The notes: generated from the letters alone by a model not told the origin. A stretch of 64,000 nucleotides of DNA from a virus (IMGVR_UViG_3300028563_000014:1-64000); one strand, 5' to 3'; positions 4,063 to 14,953 are shown, numbered from the stretch's first letter. Program-made: numbers and translations.

Positions 4063-5496
4063 TCAGGCGCGGTCGTCGTCCCGCTCGGCCGCGTCGTAGA
4101 AAGCCATGAACCGGCCGTCCCAGTCCACGTCGACCTCCCCCTCCGGACCCTCCCGGTGCTTCGCCACGATGATGCTGGCCGGCACCGGGCCCTTGGACGC
4201 GCCGCGGACGCCCGGGTCGCGCCAGGGGAACAGCACCAGGTCCGCGTCCTGCTCGACCGAACCCGAGTCGCGCAGGTCGGCCAGGATCGGCTTCCGGCTC
4301 ACCCCGCCCTTACCGCCCTTCTCGCTCTCGCGGTTCAACTGGGAGACCAGGGCGATCGGGCAGTGCAGCTCCTTCGCCAGCTTCTTGAACCGGCGGGTGA
4401 TCTTGGTGACCACCTGCGTCCGGTTCTCGCTGTCGGACGACTCCTCCACCTCGACCAGGCCGAGATAGTCGACGGCGATCACCTTGCGCACCTTGGTCGG
4501 CGGCTCGCGCTTCTCGGTCAGCGCCTTCGCCCGCGCCTCGCGGTCGATCTTCGCCGCCCAGCGCCTGGCCTCGGAGCAGATCTGCCGGAGCCCCAGCGCG
4601 TCCGTGTTGATGTGCAGGTCGAGCGGCGCCAGCTTCTTCCCCGCGTCATGGACCTTGATCCACTCCTTGGTGTCGATCTTCGCCCGGGAGATCCGGTTCC
4701 CCGTCACTTGCCCGACGAACGCCAGGCCCCGCTCGATCAGCTGCTGCCGACTCATCTCCAGCGAGAACATCAGCGTCGGCACTCCGCCCATCGACATCCG
4801 GATCAGCGTCGACCAGGCCAGCGACGACTTGCCCTTGCCCGGGCGCGCCGCGATCACGATGACCTGCTCCTCGCGCCACCCGCCGATCTTCTCGTCGTAC
4901 TCGCGCAGACCGGTCTGCACCTCGTACTCGTCGGGCTTGTCTTGCTTGTTCTGGATCTCGTCGATCCCGTGCTGGAGCACGTCGCCCAGGCGCACCGTCC
5001 CCGCTCCCATCGGGACCTCGAGGTTCGCCACCGCCGTCCGGTGCTCGGCGACCAGGTCGTGCACGTCCTCCTCGCCGTGCGCGCGCAGGACGATCTCCGT
5101 CGCCGCCTTGATCAGCCGGCGCCGGACGGCGAAGTCCCGCACCTGGCGCGCGTAATGCGGGACGTCCTCGCCGGTCGAGACGACGTCCATGAGCCTCGTC
5201 AGGTAGATCTCTCCGTCTTCCAGCCGCGACAGCTGCCCCCGCAGCCGCAGCTCGTCGGCCAGAAAGACCGGGTTGATCGGCTTCCCGGTCGTCACCAGGT
5301 GGCGCATGGCCTCGTAGATCTCCCGGTGCGCCGGCATGTAGAACTCGTCCGCGTCCCGCAGGAACAGCGTCACGTCCTCCATCGCGGACGGCTTGATCAG
5401 CACGCTCCCCAGCACCGCCTGCTCCGCCTTCAGCGAGTAGGGCATGGGCCGGCTGTTCGGGAGAGGAGACCTCGGGTCCTTCTCGCTGTGTTTCAC
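4063..5496 (-). CDS. dnaB: replicative DNA helicase DnaB
   Basis: PYSLKAEQAVLGSVL, IAARPGKGKS, FSLEMS, VDYLGL, SQLNRESE, LADLRDSGSVEQDADLV, IVAKHREG. Confidence 0.97.
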   Translation of the reverse strand: MKHSEKDPRSPLPNSRPMPYSLKAEQAVLGSVLIKPSAMEDVTLFLRDADEFYMPAHREIYEAMRHLVTTGKPINPVFLADELRLRGQLSRLEDGEIYLTRLMDVVSTGEDVPHYARQVRDFAVRRRLIKAATEIVLRAHGEEDVHDLVAEHRTAVANLEVPMGAGTVRLGDVLQHGIDEIQNKQDKPDEYEVQTGLREYDEKIGGWREEQVIVIAARPGKGKSSLAWSTLIRMSMGGVPTLMFSLEMSRQQLIERGLAFVGQVTGNRISRAKIDTKEWIKVHDAGKKLAPLDLHINTDALGLRQICSEARRWAAKIDREARAKALTEKREPPTKVRKVIAVDYLGLVEVEESSDSENRTQVVTKITRRFKKLAKELHCPIALVSQLNRESEKGGKGGVSRKPILADLRDSGSVEQDADLVLFPWRDPGVRGASKGPVPASIIVAKHREGPEGEVDVDWDGRFMAFYDAAERDDDRA

Positions 5497-8628: not shown

Positions 8629-10032
8629 TCACGCGCGCTCCATCGCCGACAGGTCGTCCTCGCGCACCACCCGCGTCTCGTACCCGCGGGACCGGTAGGC
8701 CTCCATCCGCAGGCGCGCGTGCGCCTCAAGCCAGCGGTTGCCGACATCGAGGAAGTCCCAATAGCGCACCAGCTCCTTCTCGCCGGCGATCCGCATCAGT
8801 CGGCCGGGCTTCTGGATGGCGTCGATCCGGGAGCGGCCCGCGGCCAGGTTCACCGCGCTCTCGACGAACGGGATGTCGACCCCCTTGTTGAAGATCTTGG
8901 AGACCACCAGCACGTCTGACCGCCCGGTGTTCAGGCGGATCTTCGCCCCGTTGCGCGCGTTGGTGCTGTTCACGCCGGAGATGTACTCGGTGCGCACGCC
9001 CGCGGCCTCGAGGCGCCCCATGAACGCGCGTCCGTGCGGGACGGCCTTCACGAAGGCCAGCGCAGGCCGCGGGCACAGGACCGGAGAGGAAGCGATCCGA
9101 GCGGCGATCCGGTTCCGGTCGGCGTTCAGCACCACCCCCGCCTCATAGACCTCGCTCCAGGACCCGGTCATCCGGTGCTGATGGAACTGGATCATCAGGA
9201 TTTCGATGCGCGCCAGGACCCCGGCGTCGACCAGCTCCTTCACCGGGACGTCCACGATCAGCGGGCCCAGCGCCTCGATCGTCCGGTAGTCGTCCTCGTC
9301 CTCGCGCTCCAACGGGGTGGCCGACAGGCCCACCCTCCAGTAGGCGTTCGGGGTGGCCATGGCCACCTTGTGGCTCTCGCCCGGCGCCAGGACCTGGACC
9401 TCGTCGCACACCAGGCCCTGGGCGCCCTCCAGCAGCTCGTCGACTTCGCCCCCCTCGCCGATGCCGCGTAGCAGCGCCTGGAGGGTCGCCACGGTCACCC
9501 GGCGCGGGTCCTTCTCGCCGTCGCCCCAGAGCCCCGCCCGCTCGCCCGTGCGCAGGAAGATCCGGTCGGCGGCCTGGTGCATCAGGTCTTTCGTGTCGAC
9601 CAGGATCAGCCACCGGACGGGGACGGCCTGGGCCAGGGCGGCAAACAGTTCCGATTTTCCCGATCCTGTTGGCATGGCGACGATCCCGCGCCTCCGCTCA
9701 AGGATTCGCTCCAGGACGGGCGTTTGATACGACCGCAGCCAAGCCCCGGCCGAGGCGTTCAACGTCACCCTGGGCTCGCGGCGGACGTCCTGGAGCTCGA
9801 TCTGGACCCCGGCCTCGCGCGCCCGGCCCACCACCATCCGGACAAGCCCGGCCCCGAACCGCTGGCGCCGCTCGTCCAGGAGCCGAGTGGAGCCGTCCCA
9901 GACGCCGTTCTGGTAGGCGTCCGTGTGCTCCGCCCCCTTCACCGGAACGGTCAGGTACTGGCGGAGCCAGGCCAGATCCTCTGGGGAGGCGTCCTCGACC
10001 CGCGCCCAGAGGTTGTCAGCGATCAGTTTCAA
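8629..10032 (-). CDS. superfamily 2 helicase (UvsW-like)
   Basis: LRSYQ, MPTGSGKS, CDEVQ, GLSATP, GVDIP, IQKPGRLMR; TTG start overlaps the upstream stop. Confidence 0.9.
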   Translation of the reverse strand: MKLIADNLWARVEDASPEDLAWLRQYLTVPVKGAEHTDAYQNGVWDGSTRLLDERRQRFGAGLVRMVVGRAREAGVQIELQDVRREPRVTLNASAGAWLRSYQTPVLERILERRRGIVAMPTGSGKSELFAALAQAVPVRWLILVDTKDLMHQAADRIFLRTGERAGLWGDGEKDPRRVTVATLQALLRGIGEGGEVDELLEGAQGLVCDEVQVLAPGESHKVAMATPNAYWRVGLSATPLEREDEDDYRTIEALGPLIVDVPVKELVDAGVLARIEILMIQFHQHRMTGSWSEVYEAGVVLNADRNRIAARIASSPVLCPRPALAFVKAVPHGRAFMGRLEAAGVRTEYISGVNSTNARNGAKIRLNTGRSDVLVVSKIFNKGVDIPFVESAVNLAAGRSRIDAIQKPGRLMRIAGEKELVRYWDFLDVGNRWLEAHARLRMEAYRSRGYETRVVREDDLSAMERA

Positions 10033-10253
10033 TGGGCCCTTCCCGGCGGCCGCGCGATCTTCCCCCACAGGGAGATGCTGACGGCCACGAACCCGATCGC
10101 GAGCGCGGCGTAGGACGACGCCCGAGACACGTCGTCCCAGCACCAGCAGCCGGCATGCCAATCGTCGACCAGGTCGAGGACGACGTCCACCATGCGGCTC
10201 GCCAGCCCGAACGACGCCAGTAGGATCACCAGCGCCGATACGGCCGGCCTCAT
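10029..10253 (-). CDS. small membrane protein
   Basis: Two hydrophobic segments; overlaps both neighbours. Confidence 0.55.
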   Translation of the reverse strand: MRPAVSALVILLASFGLASRMVDVVLDLVDDWHAGCWCWDDVSRASSYAALAIGFVAVSISLWGKIARPPGRAH

Positions 10254-11407: not shown

Positions 11408-11947
11408 TCAAGTCTGTTTCTTCTCGCAACCATTCGGCGTAGGCAGGGCGATCAGCCACTGCGCGATCTGGACGGCGCGGTCCTGCAGCTGCTCCGGAGG
11501 GATACCGCCGCGCCGCTGGCGCCAGTGGGCCCAGCGCTCCATCCGCCGGTCCTGGCGGTTCAGGCCGTCCAGGAGCTGCCGCAGGTTCTTGACCAACTCG
11601 TCCTTGTCAGGCAACGCTACTGGGTGCACGGCTGGTGCCTCTGTCGTTCGGGGCGCTTCTGGTGCGGGGACATCGGGCAGGACCCCCGGCTCGTTCGTGA
11701 CGGGCGAGCCGGGGTCATCCTGGAGCAGGGCGCGTAGCTGGACCTTGTAGATCGGCATCTCGCAGATGAGGCCGTCCACCGTGACCAGCGCCTTCCACCA
11801 GCCCGGGAGGACGCCGTTCGGAGCGAGCGGGGCGATCACTTCGCCAGACGCCCCGGGAGGCACCCGGACCGTGGCCTTCGGGTCATCCGCCCCCCGGGGC
11901 CAGGCGCCCCACCAGTCGCCGCGGATGACGAACTTCTTGCCGACCAC
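11408..11947 (-). CDS. hypothetical protein
   Basis: 179 aa ORF. Confidence 0.55.
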   Translation of the reverse strand: MVGKKFVIRGDWWGAWPRGADDPKATVRVPPGASGEVIAPLAPNGVLPGWWKALVTVDGLICEMPIYKVQLRALLQDDPGSPVTNEPGVLPDVPAPEAPRTTEAPAVHPVALPDKDELVKNLRQLLDGLNRQDRRMERWAHWRQRRGGIPPEQLQDRAVQIAQWLIALPTPNGCEKKQT

Positions 11948-12058
11948 GTCAGACCAGAACCTTGCTCGTCTTCATGTGCGATCCTTTCGTCGGTCAGTTA
12001 TCCAGGCGAACTCAGCCGTTGCCGTACGCGCCCAGGTGCGTCCCGATCCCGCGCGCCA

Positions 12059-12247
12059 TCAGCACCGACTGTGCCGGCTCCAGCGCGTGGGCTTGATTTC
12101 GATGGGCTGGATGTTGTCGCCCTCGATGTATGCGGGGCGCCCCAGCCGGTCGGCCTTCTCCTGCGCGATGGCTTCGAGGCGAATGTCGCTCAGTCCGTCT
12201 GCGAGCTGGTTGCCGTGTCCGTCGGTGATCATGTACGTGGTTTTCAT
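12059..12247 (-). CDS. small hypothetical protein
   Basis: GAGGAG-ACACC-ATG; MKTTYMITDGHGNQLADGL... Confidence 0.65.
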   Translation of the reverse strand: MKTTYMITDGHGNQLADGLSDIRLEAIAQEKADRLGRPAYIEGDNIQPIEIKPTRWSRHSRC

Positions 12248-12318
12248 GGTGTCTCCTCGGTTCGTGTTGTTGCAGGCGACCTCAGCGGCGACGGGCTTGC
12301 CTGGTTGGTGGTTAGTCG

Positions 12319-12834
12319 TCAGTTGCCTCTCGAACTCCTCGCGTAGCCGGCGCAGCGTCGCCACTCCTTCGCGTCCGTCTTCGAGACGCGCTTCTTCAGG
12401 TTCTCCAGCTTGGCCTTCGGGTCGATGCCCTCCTCCGCCGCCCGGGTGATCTTCTCCGCGGTCTCGGCGATCTTGACCTCGGAGAGCAGCGCCCGAGCCG
12501 TGTCGCGCGCGGCCGAGACCGCCGTCCGCGTGTCCAGCTCCAGCGTCTGCTGCGACCACTCGACGTCGTCCGTCAGCTGGCGCCCGAGGTGCACCTGGCG
12601 CAGCGCCTGCTCCATCGTCATCCCGTTCCAGCAGGCCAGCCGGTTCGCGAAGGCGTGCAGGTTGTTGGCGCCGGCGCCGAAGTCGCTCCAGGCGAAGCCG
12701 AACACCATGAACTCGCCGGGCGCCGGCTCGAAGATCCGGGGGACGATGAACTTCATCGTCACCCGGATGTCCGAGCCCCGACCATCGACCACGATCGCCC
12801 CGGCGCGCTGCGCCTCGCCGATCAGAGTGTCCAA
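12319..12834 (-). CDS. DUF932-like protein, C-terminal part (split gene, 3' end may be truncated)
   Basis: WSDFGAG...RLACWNG...RQVHLG motifs; AAAAGGAG upstream of a TTG inside the direct repeat. Confidence 0.7.
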   Translation of the reverse strand: MDTLIGEAQRAGAIVVDGRGSDIRVTMKFIVPRIFEPAPGEFMVFGFAWSDFGAGANNLHAFANRLACWNGMTMEQALRQVHLGRQLTDDVEWSQQTLELDTRTAVSAARDTARALLSEVKIAETAEKITRAAEEGIDPKAKLENLKKRVSKTDAKEWRRCAGYARSSRGN

Positions 12835-13264
12835 GATTCGATTCTCCTTTTCGGTTGGTTCGGTTCGGTTAGTTGGTTATCCAGGCGACGCGCTTGCCTG
12901 GTCGGTGGTTAGTCGATGCTGCGCTCGGCTCGAATGGCGGCGCGCGTCGCCTTGCCCATCGCAGCCAGCTTGCGCTGCATGCACTTGACGACCTCTGCCA
13001 TGTTCGCGGCAGGGTCCGTCACGGTCTCGGATACGCCGTTGCCCGTGCGCGCGTCTGTGAGCCGCAGGCTCACAGAAATGAGCCGCACGACCTCGCCCGT
13101 GTATGTCCCGTCGGGATTCTGCGGGGCATGGTCGCGGGACTTTGCAAGCGCCTCGATCTTTGGGGCGGCGGCCTTTGCGTCAGCCACCAGCTTCGCTGCC
13201 TCAGTCGCTGTCATCGTCGTCGTCGTCGTCATGAAAACCACTCGCCGATCAGAGTGTCCAAGAT
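12814..13264. repeat. 24-bp perfect direct repeat flanking a 427-bp insertion unit
   Basis: ctcgccgatcagagtgtccaagat at 12814-12837 and 13241-13264. Confidence 0.95.
12909..13232 (-). CDS. hypothetical protein carried inside the insertion
   Basis: 107 aa; ATGA overlap with the stop of the DUF932 N-terminal half. Confidence 0.65.
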   Translation of the reverse strand: MTTTTTMTATEAAKLVADAKAAAPKIEALAKSRDHAPQNPDGTYTGEVVRLISVSLRLTDARTGNGVSETVTDPAANMAEVVKCMQRKLAAMGKATRAAIRAERSID

Positions 13265-13708
13265 CGGCCGGGCATCGATGCGCCGGAACTTCGAGGACAG
13301 GACCGCGCGGACCTCCGTGCCTACGCGGCGGACCAGGTAACGCGACTTCTCCTGTCCCATGTGGACGCCGTCGTTCAGGTTGCGGGCCAGGAGCTCGGTT
13401 CCCCACTGCCCCTGCGTCAGCAGGTGGTCGGCGTAGGCCATCGGCATCTTGGCCTGCTCGGACAGGTGATTCAGCGCGTGCCGGTGGACCTGGTAGAAGG
13501 TGCCGGCGCCGACCGCCACCCCCACCTCGCCCGGGCGCGTGGCGGTGAAATTCAGGGCGGTGGCGCGGGCCACGGCGTCCTCCGGGATCTCGCGCAGGAT
13601 GCGCTCCTGCAGCCCGACGGCGCGGGCCTGGCCCTGGGCGATGTACTGCTCCAGGCGGGACTGGGCAACCTGGCGCTGGGCGGGGGTGGAGGCGATGAGG
13701 TTCGACAT
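13229..13708 (-). CDS. DUF932-like protein, N-terminal part (split gene)
   Basis: HALNHL...MPMAY...LARNLN...LVRRVGTEVRAVLSSKFRRID; ends ILDTLIGE-WFS*. Confidence 0.7.
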   Translation of the reverse strand: MSNLIASTPAQRQVAQSRLEQYIAQGQARAVGLQERILREIPEDAVARATALNFTATRPGEVGVAVGAGTFYQVHRHALNHLSEQAKMPMAYADHLLTQGQWGTELLARNLNDGVHMGQEKSRYLVRRVGTEVRAVLSSKFRRIDARPILDTLIGEWFS

Positions 13709-13799
13709 GACGGTCCTTTCGTTCGGGTCAGGAGAGCGAGGGCAGCGCCCCCTTGGGCGACCGCGCGCGATAGTCAGCGCCGCGCGGCCGGAGGATGCA

Positions 13800-14060
13800 T
13801 CAGGCCGCACCTCCTTCCCGGCGCCGAGCCATCATCCGCTCCACGGCCTCCACGCTGGTGCCCTCCGGCCACCCCAGCCCCTGGGCGATCAGGTGGGCGT
13901 AGCCCAGGAATATCTCCAGGCCGTCGCGGGCGACGTAGATCTCTACGTTCCCGGCGGCCGGGCCGCTCCGGTACCCGTCCACCAGCACCGCGACGAACGT
14001 GCGCCCGTCCTGCTCGAACTCGGCCCGCGCCGCGACGTAACCACCAACTACGTATCCCAT
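13800..14060 (-). CDS. hypothetical protein
   Basis: ATG 14060 downstream of an AT-rich promoter. Confidence 0.5.
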   Translation of the reverse strand: MGYVVGGYVAARAEFEQDGRTFVAVLVDGYRSGPAAGNVEIYVARDGLEIFLGYAHLIAQGLGWPEGTSVEAVERMMARRREGGAA

Positions 14061-14106
14061 CGGTCCCTTCTTTCTGCCCGGCGGGTCCAACCGCCTGACG
14101 AAGAGG

Positions 14107-14135
14107 ACCTTACCGTAATGAAAAACTAAACGCAA
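14107..14135 (-). promoter_or_regulatory. AT-rich sigma70-like promoter, probably early
   Basis: TTGCGT-17 nt-TAAGGT in a strongly AT-rich intergenic patch. Confidence 0.55.
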
Positions 14136-14144
14136 ACAAAATCG

Positions 14145-14387
14145 TCAGCCCTGGTTCACTGGCGCCAGATCAGCGGGGCCCCGATAAAAGCACCGGTACT
14201 CTCCCCAGCCCCACTGAAAGCACCTCCTCTCCCGCTCGAACGCCGCGAAGTTGAACGCGCGGTTCAGCAGGTCGGTCGACGGCCCGCCGCAGCGCTGGCA
14301 GACGGCGCCATCGTAGAGCTGCTTGACGGGCGCGCCCGGGGGATGGGCAGCCAACCATTTCTTGCCAGGTCCGATCCGGTACTTCAT
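14145..14387 (-). CDS. hypothetical protein
   Basis: 80 aa, CxxC, ATGA overlap. Confidence 0.5.
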   Translation of the reverse strand: MKYRIGPGKKWLAAHPPGAPVKQLYDGAVCQRCGGPSTDLLNRAFNFAAFERERRCFQWGWGEYRCFYRGPADLAPVNQG

Positions 14388-14953
14388 CCGAGCAGCCCGA
14401 GCGCCTTTTGTCTGCCGTAATGCGCGAGGAACAGTGCGTCCGCGCGGTCGACCAGGAGCGCGCCGCGTGGCCCGCGCAGATGCGCCGCCGCCGCTGGGTA
14501 GAGCTGGCAGATAGCCGGGACCGCCGCCTCCTTCGTCTTCGGCTGGCCGGCGAGCAGCCGCGCCTTCCAGGTGACCGCGGCGACGATGTCGTAGGGGATC
14601 CCGAGCGCGGCCAGCAGGCCCTGCCAGATCCCGAACCCCTCGCCGGCGGCGAACGCGTACTGCGCTCCCATCGGGATGATGCGAGTCCCGATCCGCCGGG
14701 GCTGCGCCGTCGCGCGCTCCAGCGTCAGCGACGCCAGCCGAGCGTTGCGCAGGATCAGCGCCATCTCCGCCGGCAGGTAGACGCGCTTCTTCTTCTTGTT
14801 CCCGGCCTTCGTCTTCGTCGTCAGCTCGACCTCGATGGTCGGGACGTCGAAGAACTGAACCGACAGGTCCGGTCGGATCACCGCCAGGGCGCCGTCCTTC
14901 CCCGGATCGATGCCACCGAACGACTGCCCCTCTGCGAACGTGGTTTGGCTCAT
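14384..14953 (-). CDS. ruvC: RuvC-like Holliday junction resolvase
   Basis: GIDPGKDGALA, TLE, FAAGEGFGIW, VTWK, DRADALFLA. Confidence 0.85.
   Translation of the reverse strand: MSQTTFAEGQSFGGIDPGKDGALAVIRPDLSVQFFDVPTIEVELTTKTKAGNKKKKRVYLPAEMALILRNARLASLTLERATAQPRRIGTRIIPMGAQYAFAAGEGFGIWQGLLAALGIPYDIVAAVTWKARLLAGQPKTKEAAVPAICQLYPAAAAHLRGPRGALLVDRADALFLAHYGRQKALGLLG

Follow-up and report, generated by a model that had tools for sequence, protein, structure and literature searches.

A one-gene insertion between perfect 24-nt direct repeats in a conserved phage gene that has also lost its 3' end

Genome context and layout of the locus

The window, by which we mean the whole stretch of DNA that was analyzed, covers positions 1-64,000 of a virus record of 87,462 bases, for which CheckV estimates a completeness of 100. 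The first and last 144 nt of that record (1-144 and 87319-87462) are the same sequence apart from one mismatch, and the record is listed as 'linear'. It is probably a complete genome, either circularly assembled or terminally redundant. The neighboring genes all lie on the minus strand, in a part of the genome that encodes a RuvC-like Holliday-junction resolvase (14384-14947) and, at 8629-10098, a DNA helicase. At the locus itself, a gene that is continuous in related phages, hereafter the host gene, is interrupted by an insert carrying one small gene, the cargo, and is represented by two separate open reading frames. The features are as follows:

13229-13708, minus strand: N-terminal half of the host gene, 159 aa, with homology over 13241-13708 and an insert-derived WFS-stop at its end
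13241-13264: direct-repeat copy that closes the N-terminal half and encodes ILDTLIGE; L006, a relative whose site is empty, has this sequence once and unchanged
12838-13240, minus strand: insert proper, 403 nt, missing from L003, L004 and L006 in alignments
12909-13232, minus strand: cargo (cassette) gene, 107 aa, in an ATGA overlap with the stop of the N-terminal half
12884-12915, minus strand: 32-nt motif across the stop of the cargo gene, found just once more in the genome, at 12287-12318
12838-12908, minus strand: non-coding tail of the insert, 71 nt, with a hairpin, an AC-rich run and AAAAGGAG
12814-12837: direct-repeat copy that opens the C-terminal half and holds the TTG start (12832-12834)
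12319-12834, minus strand: ORF of the C-terminal half, 171 aa, with family homology from 12837 down to 12364 only
12287-12363, minus strand: beginning of the DNA that replaces the conserved 3' end of the host gene, about 45 nt of which resemble the cargo gene, followed by the 32-nt motif

The preliminary description of this DNA had reported perfect 24-bp direct repeats 427 bp apart, and this was borne out: the repeat (CTCGCCGATCAGAGTGTCCAAGAT, plus strand) stands at 12814-12837 and 13241-13264, 24/24 identical and 427 nt from start to start, and the identity ends at both borders (c at 12813 versus a at 13240; t at 12838 versus c at 13265). Among the exact repeats of the whole 87,462-base genome it ranks third in length, after a 126-nt terminal overlap and a 27-nt repeat. 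By our own arithmetic, about 1e-5 pairs of 24-nt repeats would be expected by chance in 87 kb.

The N-terminal half ends in ...RPILDTLIGEWFS (...RPILDTLIGE-WFS and the stop). The insert, with a GC content of 0.633 versus 0.69 for the genome, holds a single ORF of 107 aa that begins in the ATGA overlap with this stop, just as had been described. Its tail has a 6-bp hairpin at 12881-12901, the fold of which is not better than that of shuffled sequences (z 0.83), and its end reads ...GGAGAATCGA. The tail places AAAAGGAG at 12844-12851, 9 nt ahead of the TTG at 12832-12834, again as had been noted. Judged from its sequence and position, AAAAGGAG would allow ribosome binding for a restart of the C-terminal half at this TTG. 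The three-ORF layout would thereby permit translation of the N-terminal half, the cargo and the C-terminal half from one transcript, in keeping with the earlier proposal that the insert keeps downstream translation going.

Other repeats were found in and around the locus. A 12-nt perfect inverted repeat, CATGAAAACCAC, pairs 12237-12248 with 13230-13241; one of its arms starts the downstream 62-aa gene, and the other stops exactly at the edge between insert and repeat. We estimate that about 0.06 chance matches of this type would be expected within ±1.5 kb. It is set aside as an oddity: some boundary 12-mer finds a match somewhere by chance in 0.845 of 200 simulated genomes, and the inverted repeat is probably fortuitous, though located at a junction. 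A 23-nt AT-rich exact repeat, CTAAACGCAAACAAAATCGTCAG, occurs at two distant intergenic spots (14126-14148 and genome 75713-75735), and a 16-nt exact repeat, CCCAGATCATTGTCCG, at three places (window 4031 and 14958, genome 76726). Both may be regulatory sites of the phage.

A single gene in the relatives

Both halves of the host gene belong to phrog_1362, with consecutive matches at profile positions 70-162 of 391 for the N-terminal half (E 5.7e-6) and 173-333 of 391 for the C-terminal half (E 4.6e-17). The host gene normally encodes about 365 aa. In a host-family profile of 366 positions, the N-terminal half corresponds to positions 1-156 and the C-terminal half to positions 148-308, where the match stops at 12364. 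The name 'DUF932', under which the gene was first described, is weakly supported. A PF06067 (DUF932) match in one of 41 homologs (E 6.3e-4) and a language-model look-up, in which full-length homologs adjoin ESM Atlas clusters with DUF932 on 18-42% of their members, hint at the resemblance, whereas Pfam matches neither half at E<=1 and leaves a full-length homolog (P0004) without a match at E<=10. Searches for the function of the family returned no Pfam family, PDB sequence match or Foldseek match. In its structure model (pLDDT 91.3), the break lies where helix 150-163 begins and separates an N-terminal helix/strand part from a part made of a sheet plus helices.

The site was compared with seven distinct related contigs (L003, identical to L007; L004, identical to L011; L006; L008; L009; L010; and L012), which comprise two complete phages (L003 and L004) and five metagenome contigs. 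In all seven, the gene runs continuously across the site, the uninterrupted reading in relatives being ...RP-ILDxLxGE-AQR..., while two separate matches (residues 3-160 and 153-312) were seen in the window alone. The closest relative, L006, has one identical copy of the 24-nt sequence and no insert, its sequence at the site being ...GCCCGGCCG-ATCTTGGACACTCTGATCGGCGAG-GCGCAG.... Identity between L006 and the window is 88-100% over stretches of 60 alignment columns, except for one mosaic patch. In a search of 5.8 billion protein clusters, 96 of the 98 homologs were 352-424 aa long, and a search for lengths of 94-300 aa yielded, apart from the C-terminal half in the window itself, just a single fragment of 94 aa on a contig of 626 bases.

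Since the relatives are continuous and L006 carries a single 24-nt copy without the insert, the insertion is the derived state. It is genuine and fairly recent, and it added 403 nt together with a 24-nt duplication. Much of the preliminary description was sustained by these comparisons: removal of the insert restores the uninterrupted frame read in the relatives, the integration is recent, and a natural two-gene layout was not seen at any of the seven homologous loci.

Two side observations concern the same gene. A patch of the N-terminal half at about 13470-13570 is 50-61% identical to L006, with flanks at 92-100%, and looks like a small intragenic recombination mosaic. In L004 (and thus L011), the homolog shifts frame near residue 325 (at about 4515-4530), just ahead of the conserved C-terminal block, which is either a frameshift or a sequencing error.

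Loss of the conserved 3' end

The insertion is not the only lesion in the host gene. From 12364, after ...DAKE, the gene in the window diverges from all relatives, and the final 15 codons of the C-terminal half are unrelated DNA. Past that point L006 continues with ...IADAFNSPDVV...LPxGNTxWRxSNAIS...LERLAGDVL. The C-terminal segment of about 55 residues that has been lost is the most conserved block of the host family; the missing profile positions 309-366 hold 7 of the 20 invariant and 5 of the 30 nearly invariant columns. A search of the whole genome with the family profile left positions 309-366 of 366 unmatched and turned up no additional copy of the gene. The C terminus was thus truncated by a second rearrangement, at 12364.

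The replacing DNA opens, from 12362 on, with some 45 nt that can be aligned to the 3'-terminal codons of the cargo gene (a local alignment of 77 columns). It continues with the 32-nt motif at 12287-12318, which is 94% identical to the motif across the cargo stop at 12884-12915. Up to 7 mismatches, this motif has two copies in 87 kb, and none was found in viral contigs. We considered whether the cassette arose from a local tandem duplication of 12287-12363 and rejected this origin, because the two tails, once the 32 nt are set aside, differ from each other far more than the window does from L006. A genome-wide, PeSL-like regulatory repeat was likewise rejected, given two copies in 87 kb and none in viral contigs. 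At the 12364 junction there is a microhomology of 7/8 (GCCGACGC versus GGCGACGC), which fits the same type of process, i.e., illegitimate joining.

Other changes in the gene are smaller. The window lacks 2 codons in the conserved WxNSDYG motif and has two replacements at positions on which the relatives agree (5/6 and 6/6 of the others agreeing). Of 158 codons in the C-terminal half, 13 differ from L006 synonymously and 4 non-synonymously; these are small numbers, and most of the divergence may predate the lesions. The open frames and the synonymous excess thus give no clear sign that decay has set in. Taken with the truncation, however, we infer that the host gene is most likely inactive or decaying in this lineage. 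The preliminary description had also envisaged a switch between intact and split protein. This is not supported: the conserved C-terminal segment of about 55 residues is missing from the whole genome, so the normal protein is not restorable by excision.

The DNA beyond the truncation varies as well. In run X2, one contig matches the window over 12328-12364 only and has other sequence on either side. The genes 3' of the host gene (12059-12247, 62 aa; 11408-11947, 179 aa) are without a PHROG family and are wholly unlike those found downstream in L003, L004 and L006. This stretch beyond the host gene is a gene-replacement hotspot.

The cargo protein and its family

A HMMER scan with the 107-aa cargo retrieved 15 proteins at E<=0.001, itself included. 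Eleven are relatives of 84-121 aa that align over their full length at 33-47% identity, and the other three are long repeat proteins having the DGTYTG-type stretch alone in common with it. The conserved motifs of the cargo family are D.AP.N.DGTYTG, TGN and KATRxxIRAER. The NPDGTYTG-type stretch is also tandemly repeated in big metagenomic proteins, P0006 (2135 aa), P0013 (383 aa) and P0018 (1112 aa), with 21 such stretches in P0006. The AlphaFold model of the cargo (pLDDT 92.1) consists of a helix, three strands and a long helix. The GC3 of the cargo gene is 0.81 versus 0.93-0.95 in the host gene, as would suit a coding gene acquired from elsewhere. The cargo is a genuine gene, belonging to an uncharacterized family of about 100 aa in metagenomes and phages.

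Neither the cargo (P0002) nor any of its 11 relatives matches a Pfam or PHROG family at useful E-values, and Foldseek searches with its fold against PDB and BFVD gave no significant match. The best VIA-align result, to LptE-like lipoproteins, has a Z of 6.2, which is within the range common for this tool. No HNH, GIY-YIG, LAGLIDADG or other nuclease signature was detected by Pfam or PHROGs.

The cargo is unique at the 90% clustering level (5.8 billion clusters), and its sequence was unmatched in 50,697 phage records (tblastn) and in IMG/VR. A profile search, with a family profile built on a 5-member alignment, found the family in neither of the two complete relatives. In bacterial genomes there were only matches of 23-26 residues to the DGTYTG motif and no full homolog. 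The sole cargo homolog with genomic context (L005) is a free-standing small gene that lacks flanking repeats. A donor of the cassette was not found in the collections searched. No second copy of the cassette ORF turned up in the phage records, the viral contigs or the protein clusters, and the tail motif has none in viral contigs and, in the genome, just the one at 12287-12318. The search for the cassette ORF at other sites, which had been put forward as a check, therefore came back empty in these collections.

Filled and empty alleles in metagenomes

Parts of the stretch are present in seven rhizosphere metagenome runs, and the contigs of four of them were compared. In X1, which may be the source sample, contigs covering 12364-12837, 12808-13270 and 13241-13459 have depths of 37, 40 and 44, and the second of these contains the whole insert and both repeats with zero differences. 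In X2, from another study, a contig (13130-13652) crosses the joint between the insert and the N-terminal half. With X3 and X4 included, the cassette sequence occurs in contigs of four separate runs; for X2-X4 our reading is confined to the covered parts of 11800-14200. The split allele is real and is found in several studies. The mis-assembly against which the preliminary description had cautioned is not borne out, given one X1 contig that spans the insert with both repeats and an insert depth of 40 versus 37 and 44 in the flanks.

The adjoining X1 contigs share 30 nt, and the shared stretches coincide exactly with the outer repeat edges (12808-12837 and 13241-13270), from which a word length of 31 can be read (the overlap being 31 minus 1). 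Since a 24-nt repeat alone cannot break a graph of 31-letter words, the contig breaks point to a second, insert-free path through one repeat copy. X1 and X2 also hold a loose-ended contig that matches the window rightwards from 12364 and has, on its other side, a normal L006-like 3' end, at a depth of about 12. On the simplest reading, the split-gene phage co-occurs with an L006-like strain whose gene is intact, and this co-occurrence explains the breaks at the repeat edges. The breaks would equally fit rare excision, the contigs being unable to discriminate between the two. Both alleles are thus present in X1, the possible source run of the window. In the contigs of the four runs, as distinct from the raw reads, no insert-free joint and no circle-type joint is listed, which does not prove that such joints are missing. 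The insert's supposed excisability is left unsupported. Nor does the cassette give any sign of being mobile, having neither a second copy of its ORF in the collections searched nor terminal inverted repeats.

Search for mobility machinery

No tyrosine or serine recombinase was found in the phage genome, where PF00589 is unmatched. The ORF of the insert has no recombinase or transposase signature in Pfam or PHROGs, in agreement with what had been said of it at the outset, and there are no terminal inverted repeats of the insert among the 22 inverted pairs in 11500-14800. An Rfam search for ribozymes at 11800-14300 (E<=1) gave two sub-threshold chance matches only, and the duplicated exon sequence argues against a self-splicing intron. 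A search of the insert for promoter-like sites found none, and its single terminator match, at the edge (13256-13239), is within chance expectation.

Origin of the insertion

We consider it reasonably likely that the insert represents a lineage-specific, one-off gain of a gene by illegitimate recombination, inside a probably dying gene. Foreign phage DNA of 403 nt would have been joined into the middle of a conserved gene of about 365 aa in this rhizosphere phage. The donor piece would span from 8 nt ahead of the ATG of the small gene to just short of the next start codon, and its beginning carries what appear to be the last codons (W F S stop) of the upstream gene in the donor. Borders of the insert that coincide with gene borders of the donor are the pattern of phage mosaic joints. 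The two joints would have been offset by 24 nt, which would leave 24 nt of target on either side. From the form of the joints and from general knowledge, we infer that a staggered break may have been filled in and its ends joined, or that there may have been a double template switch. The N-terminal half would then stop 3 codons into the insert, where the cargo starts at the ATGA, and the tail would bring a ribosome-binding site for the TTG restart of the C-terminal half, so that expression of all three parts could continue. A second rearrangement at 12364 would have cost the protein its conserved C-terminal segment of about 55 residues and presumably its function. Recombination between the 24-nt repeats could still delete the insert but would not restore the normal protein.

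Three features sit less easily with a one-off event. The perfect 24-nt duplication resembles the trace of a dedicated mechanism, and random joints would rarely be so tidy and frame-friendly. The borders of the cassette at translation signals look designed, though selection acting on random events could suffice. Finally, the start of the second rearrangement, which resembles the 3' end of the cassette, suggests that the process may recur, as opposed to two unrelated accidents. On account of the tidiness of the duplication and of the related sequence at the second junction, a dedicated mechanism keeps a low probability. In one form, the insert would be a tiny non-autonomous cassette, made up of an ORF and a tail bearing a ribosome-binding site, which is moved in trans by an enzyme making 24-nt staggered cuts and whose filled and empty alleles interconvert. 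The perfect flanking duplication, the borders exactly at translation signals, the second junction in the host gene that begins with a related gene end and the 32-nt motif, the filled and empty alleles in one sample, and a size near that of the 439-bp mycobacteriophage MPME (PMC3029335) would all suit it. Yet neither the ORF nor the tail has a second copy wherever searched, the family members are only 33-47% identical and the one with context lacks flanking repeats, terminal inverted repeats are absent, the tail hairpin is not more stable than shuffles, and the phage lacks a tyrosine or serine recombinase. Moreover, SNPs and an intact 3' end set the sample's empty allele apart, which makes it another strain and not an excision product. 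We regard such a cassette as improbable. A bolder version, to which we give slightly less credence still, would place the insert, as the first example seen, in a class of minimal gene cassettes of phages, which are inserted in trans by a 24-nt staggered cut so as to keep the operon translated. It would be just as much of a long shot that, within such a class, 12287-12363 is the scar of an earlier cassette and the repeats allow loss, with the alleles cycling.

A separate question is whether the host gene still works, i.e., whether it is a functional gene in pieces, with both halves made and reassembling into a working protein. The ATGA overlap and AAAAGGAG 9 nt upstream of the TTG would serve such a gene, the duplicated 8 residues give each half an ILDTLIGE segment at the start of helix 150-163, and both frames are open, with 13 synonymous versus 4 non-synonymous differences from L006 in the C-terminal half. 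Contigs from several runs, which belong to different studies, carry the split allele as well, and there are precedents among the phage genes described in PMC2988022. These points are weakened by the fact that open frames tell little at 69% GC and the events are recent, and they are opposed by a C-terminal half without 7 of the 20 invariant columns (profile 309-366) and by the 2-codon deletion in a conserved motif. A functional gene in pieces is therefore unlikely, albeit less so than a mobile cassette. An assembly artifact or a chimera of two strains, for its part, is scarcely credible. The sample does contain at least two related strains, and the Logan contigs do break at both repeat edges, but a 24-nt repeat is shorter than the 30-nt contig overlaps and so unable to create joints, contigs of X1 (12808-13270) and X2 (13130-13652) span the joints, and the insert has a depth of 40, equal to that of its flanks (37 and 44).

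Comparison with known systems

Morons are single accessory genes with their own translation signal, normally found between genes, and the gain of a moron is the system closest in origin to the one-off gene gain that we favor. As in moron gain, the accessory gene is absent from close relatives, the donor-side junctions lie at gene boundaries, and GC3 is below that of the neighbors; the downstream region likewise varies among the relatives. Unlike a moron, the insert interrupts a conserved gene and has a precise 24-nt duplication on its flanks, and a promoter or terminator of its own was not found.

Target duplications are usually 2-14 bp. Long ones are made by the IS1634/IS1549 group, and Cas1-type integration duplicates a whole repeat. 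The flanking duplication described here is, like these, far longer than usual. Those systems have a known enzyme and defined ends, however, whereas the insert carries no such enzyme and the phage has no tyrosine or serine recombinase. With insertion sequences in general, the target duplication is the sole shared feature, as the ORF contains no transposase and inverted repeats are lacking. The insert also differs from an integron cassette, in which a structured attC site follows the ORF and an IntI tyrosine recombinase is available: its tail has a 6-bp hairpin that folds no better than shuffled sequence (z 0.83), and PF00589 is unmatched in the phage genome.

Phage genes can also be split by free-standing homing-endonuclease genes, which are the nearest functional analogs of our case. 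For example, mobE splits nrdA in Aeh1, mobA a topoisomerase gene in T4, and a seg gene splits gene 43 in phage 25 (PMC2988022). After the mobE insertion in Aeh1, both pieces of NrdA are made and reassemble into a working protein (PMC2988022). In these cases, as at our locus, a one-gene insert turns a gene that is uninterrupted in relatives into two ORFs (PMC2988022), and the stop codon ahead of the inserted ORF lies in an overlap with it, a hint of coupled translation. A conserved gene is split, with intact alleles in relatives, in our case as well. Those insertions carry a nuclease gene and have no duplication (PMC2988022), whereas the cargo here has no nuclease signature in its sequence, a 24-nt duplication flanks the insert, and the host gene is also truncated, such that retained function is doubtful.

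The ultra-small mobile elements MPME1 and MPME2 of cluster G mycobacteriophages, the nearest in size, are 439 bp long (PMC3029335). They have left and right inverted repeats, occur as identical copies at several sites, and add 6 bp at IR-L in place of a target duplication (PMC3029335). Our insert resembles these elements in its size of about 0.4 kb, in landing within a gene and leaving the larger part as an ORF, and in having an empty site in a close relative. It differs from them in lacking terminal inverted repeats and any other copy, and in its 24-nt target duplication.

Significance

The filled and empty alleles of this locus are both in hand, from close relatives in the same kind of sample, which is rare for uncultured phages, and the pair pins the exact joints of a gene gain. 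It shows that the interior of a conserved gene is open to entry by an accessory gene, and that duplication of 24 nt of target is possible without recognizable mobile-element machinery. A confidently folded, uncharacterized family of phage proteins of about 100 aa is added as well. As it is now known, the locus is a single well-documented case of mosaic gene gain together with gene decay. If the duplication signature recurred at other sites, it would point to an unrecognized mechanism of insertion in phages.
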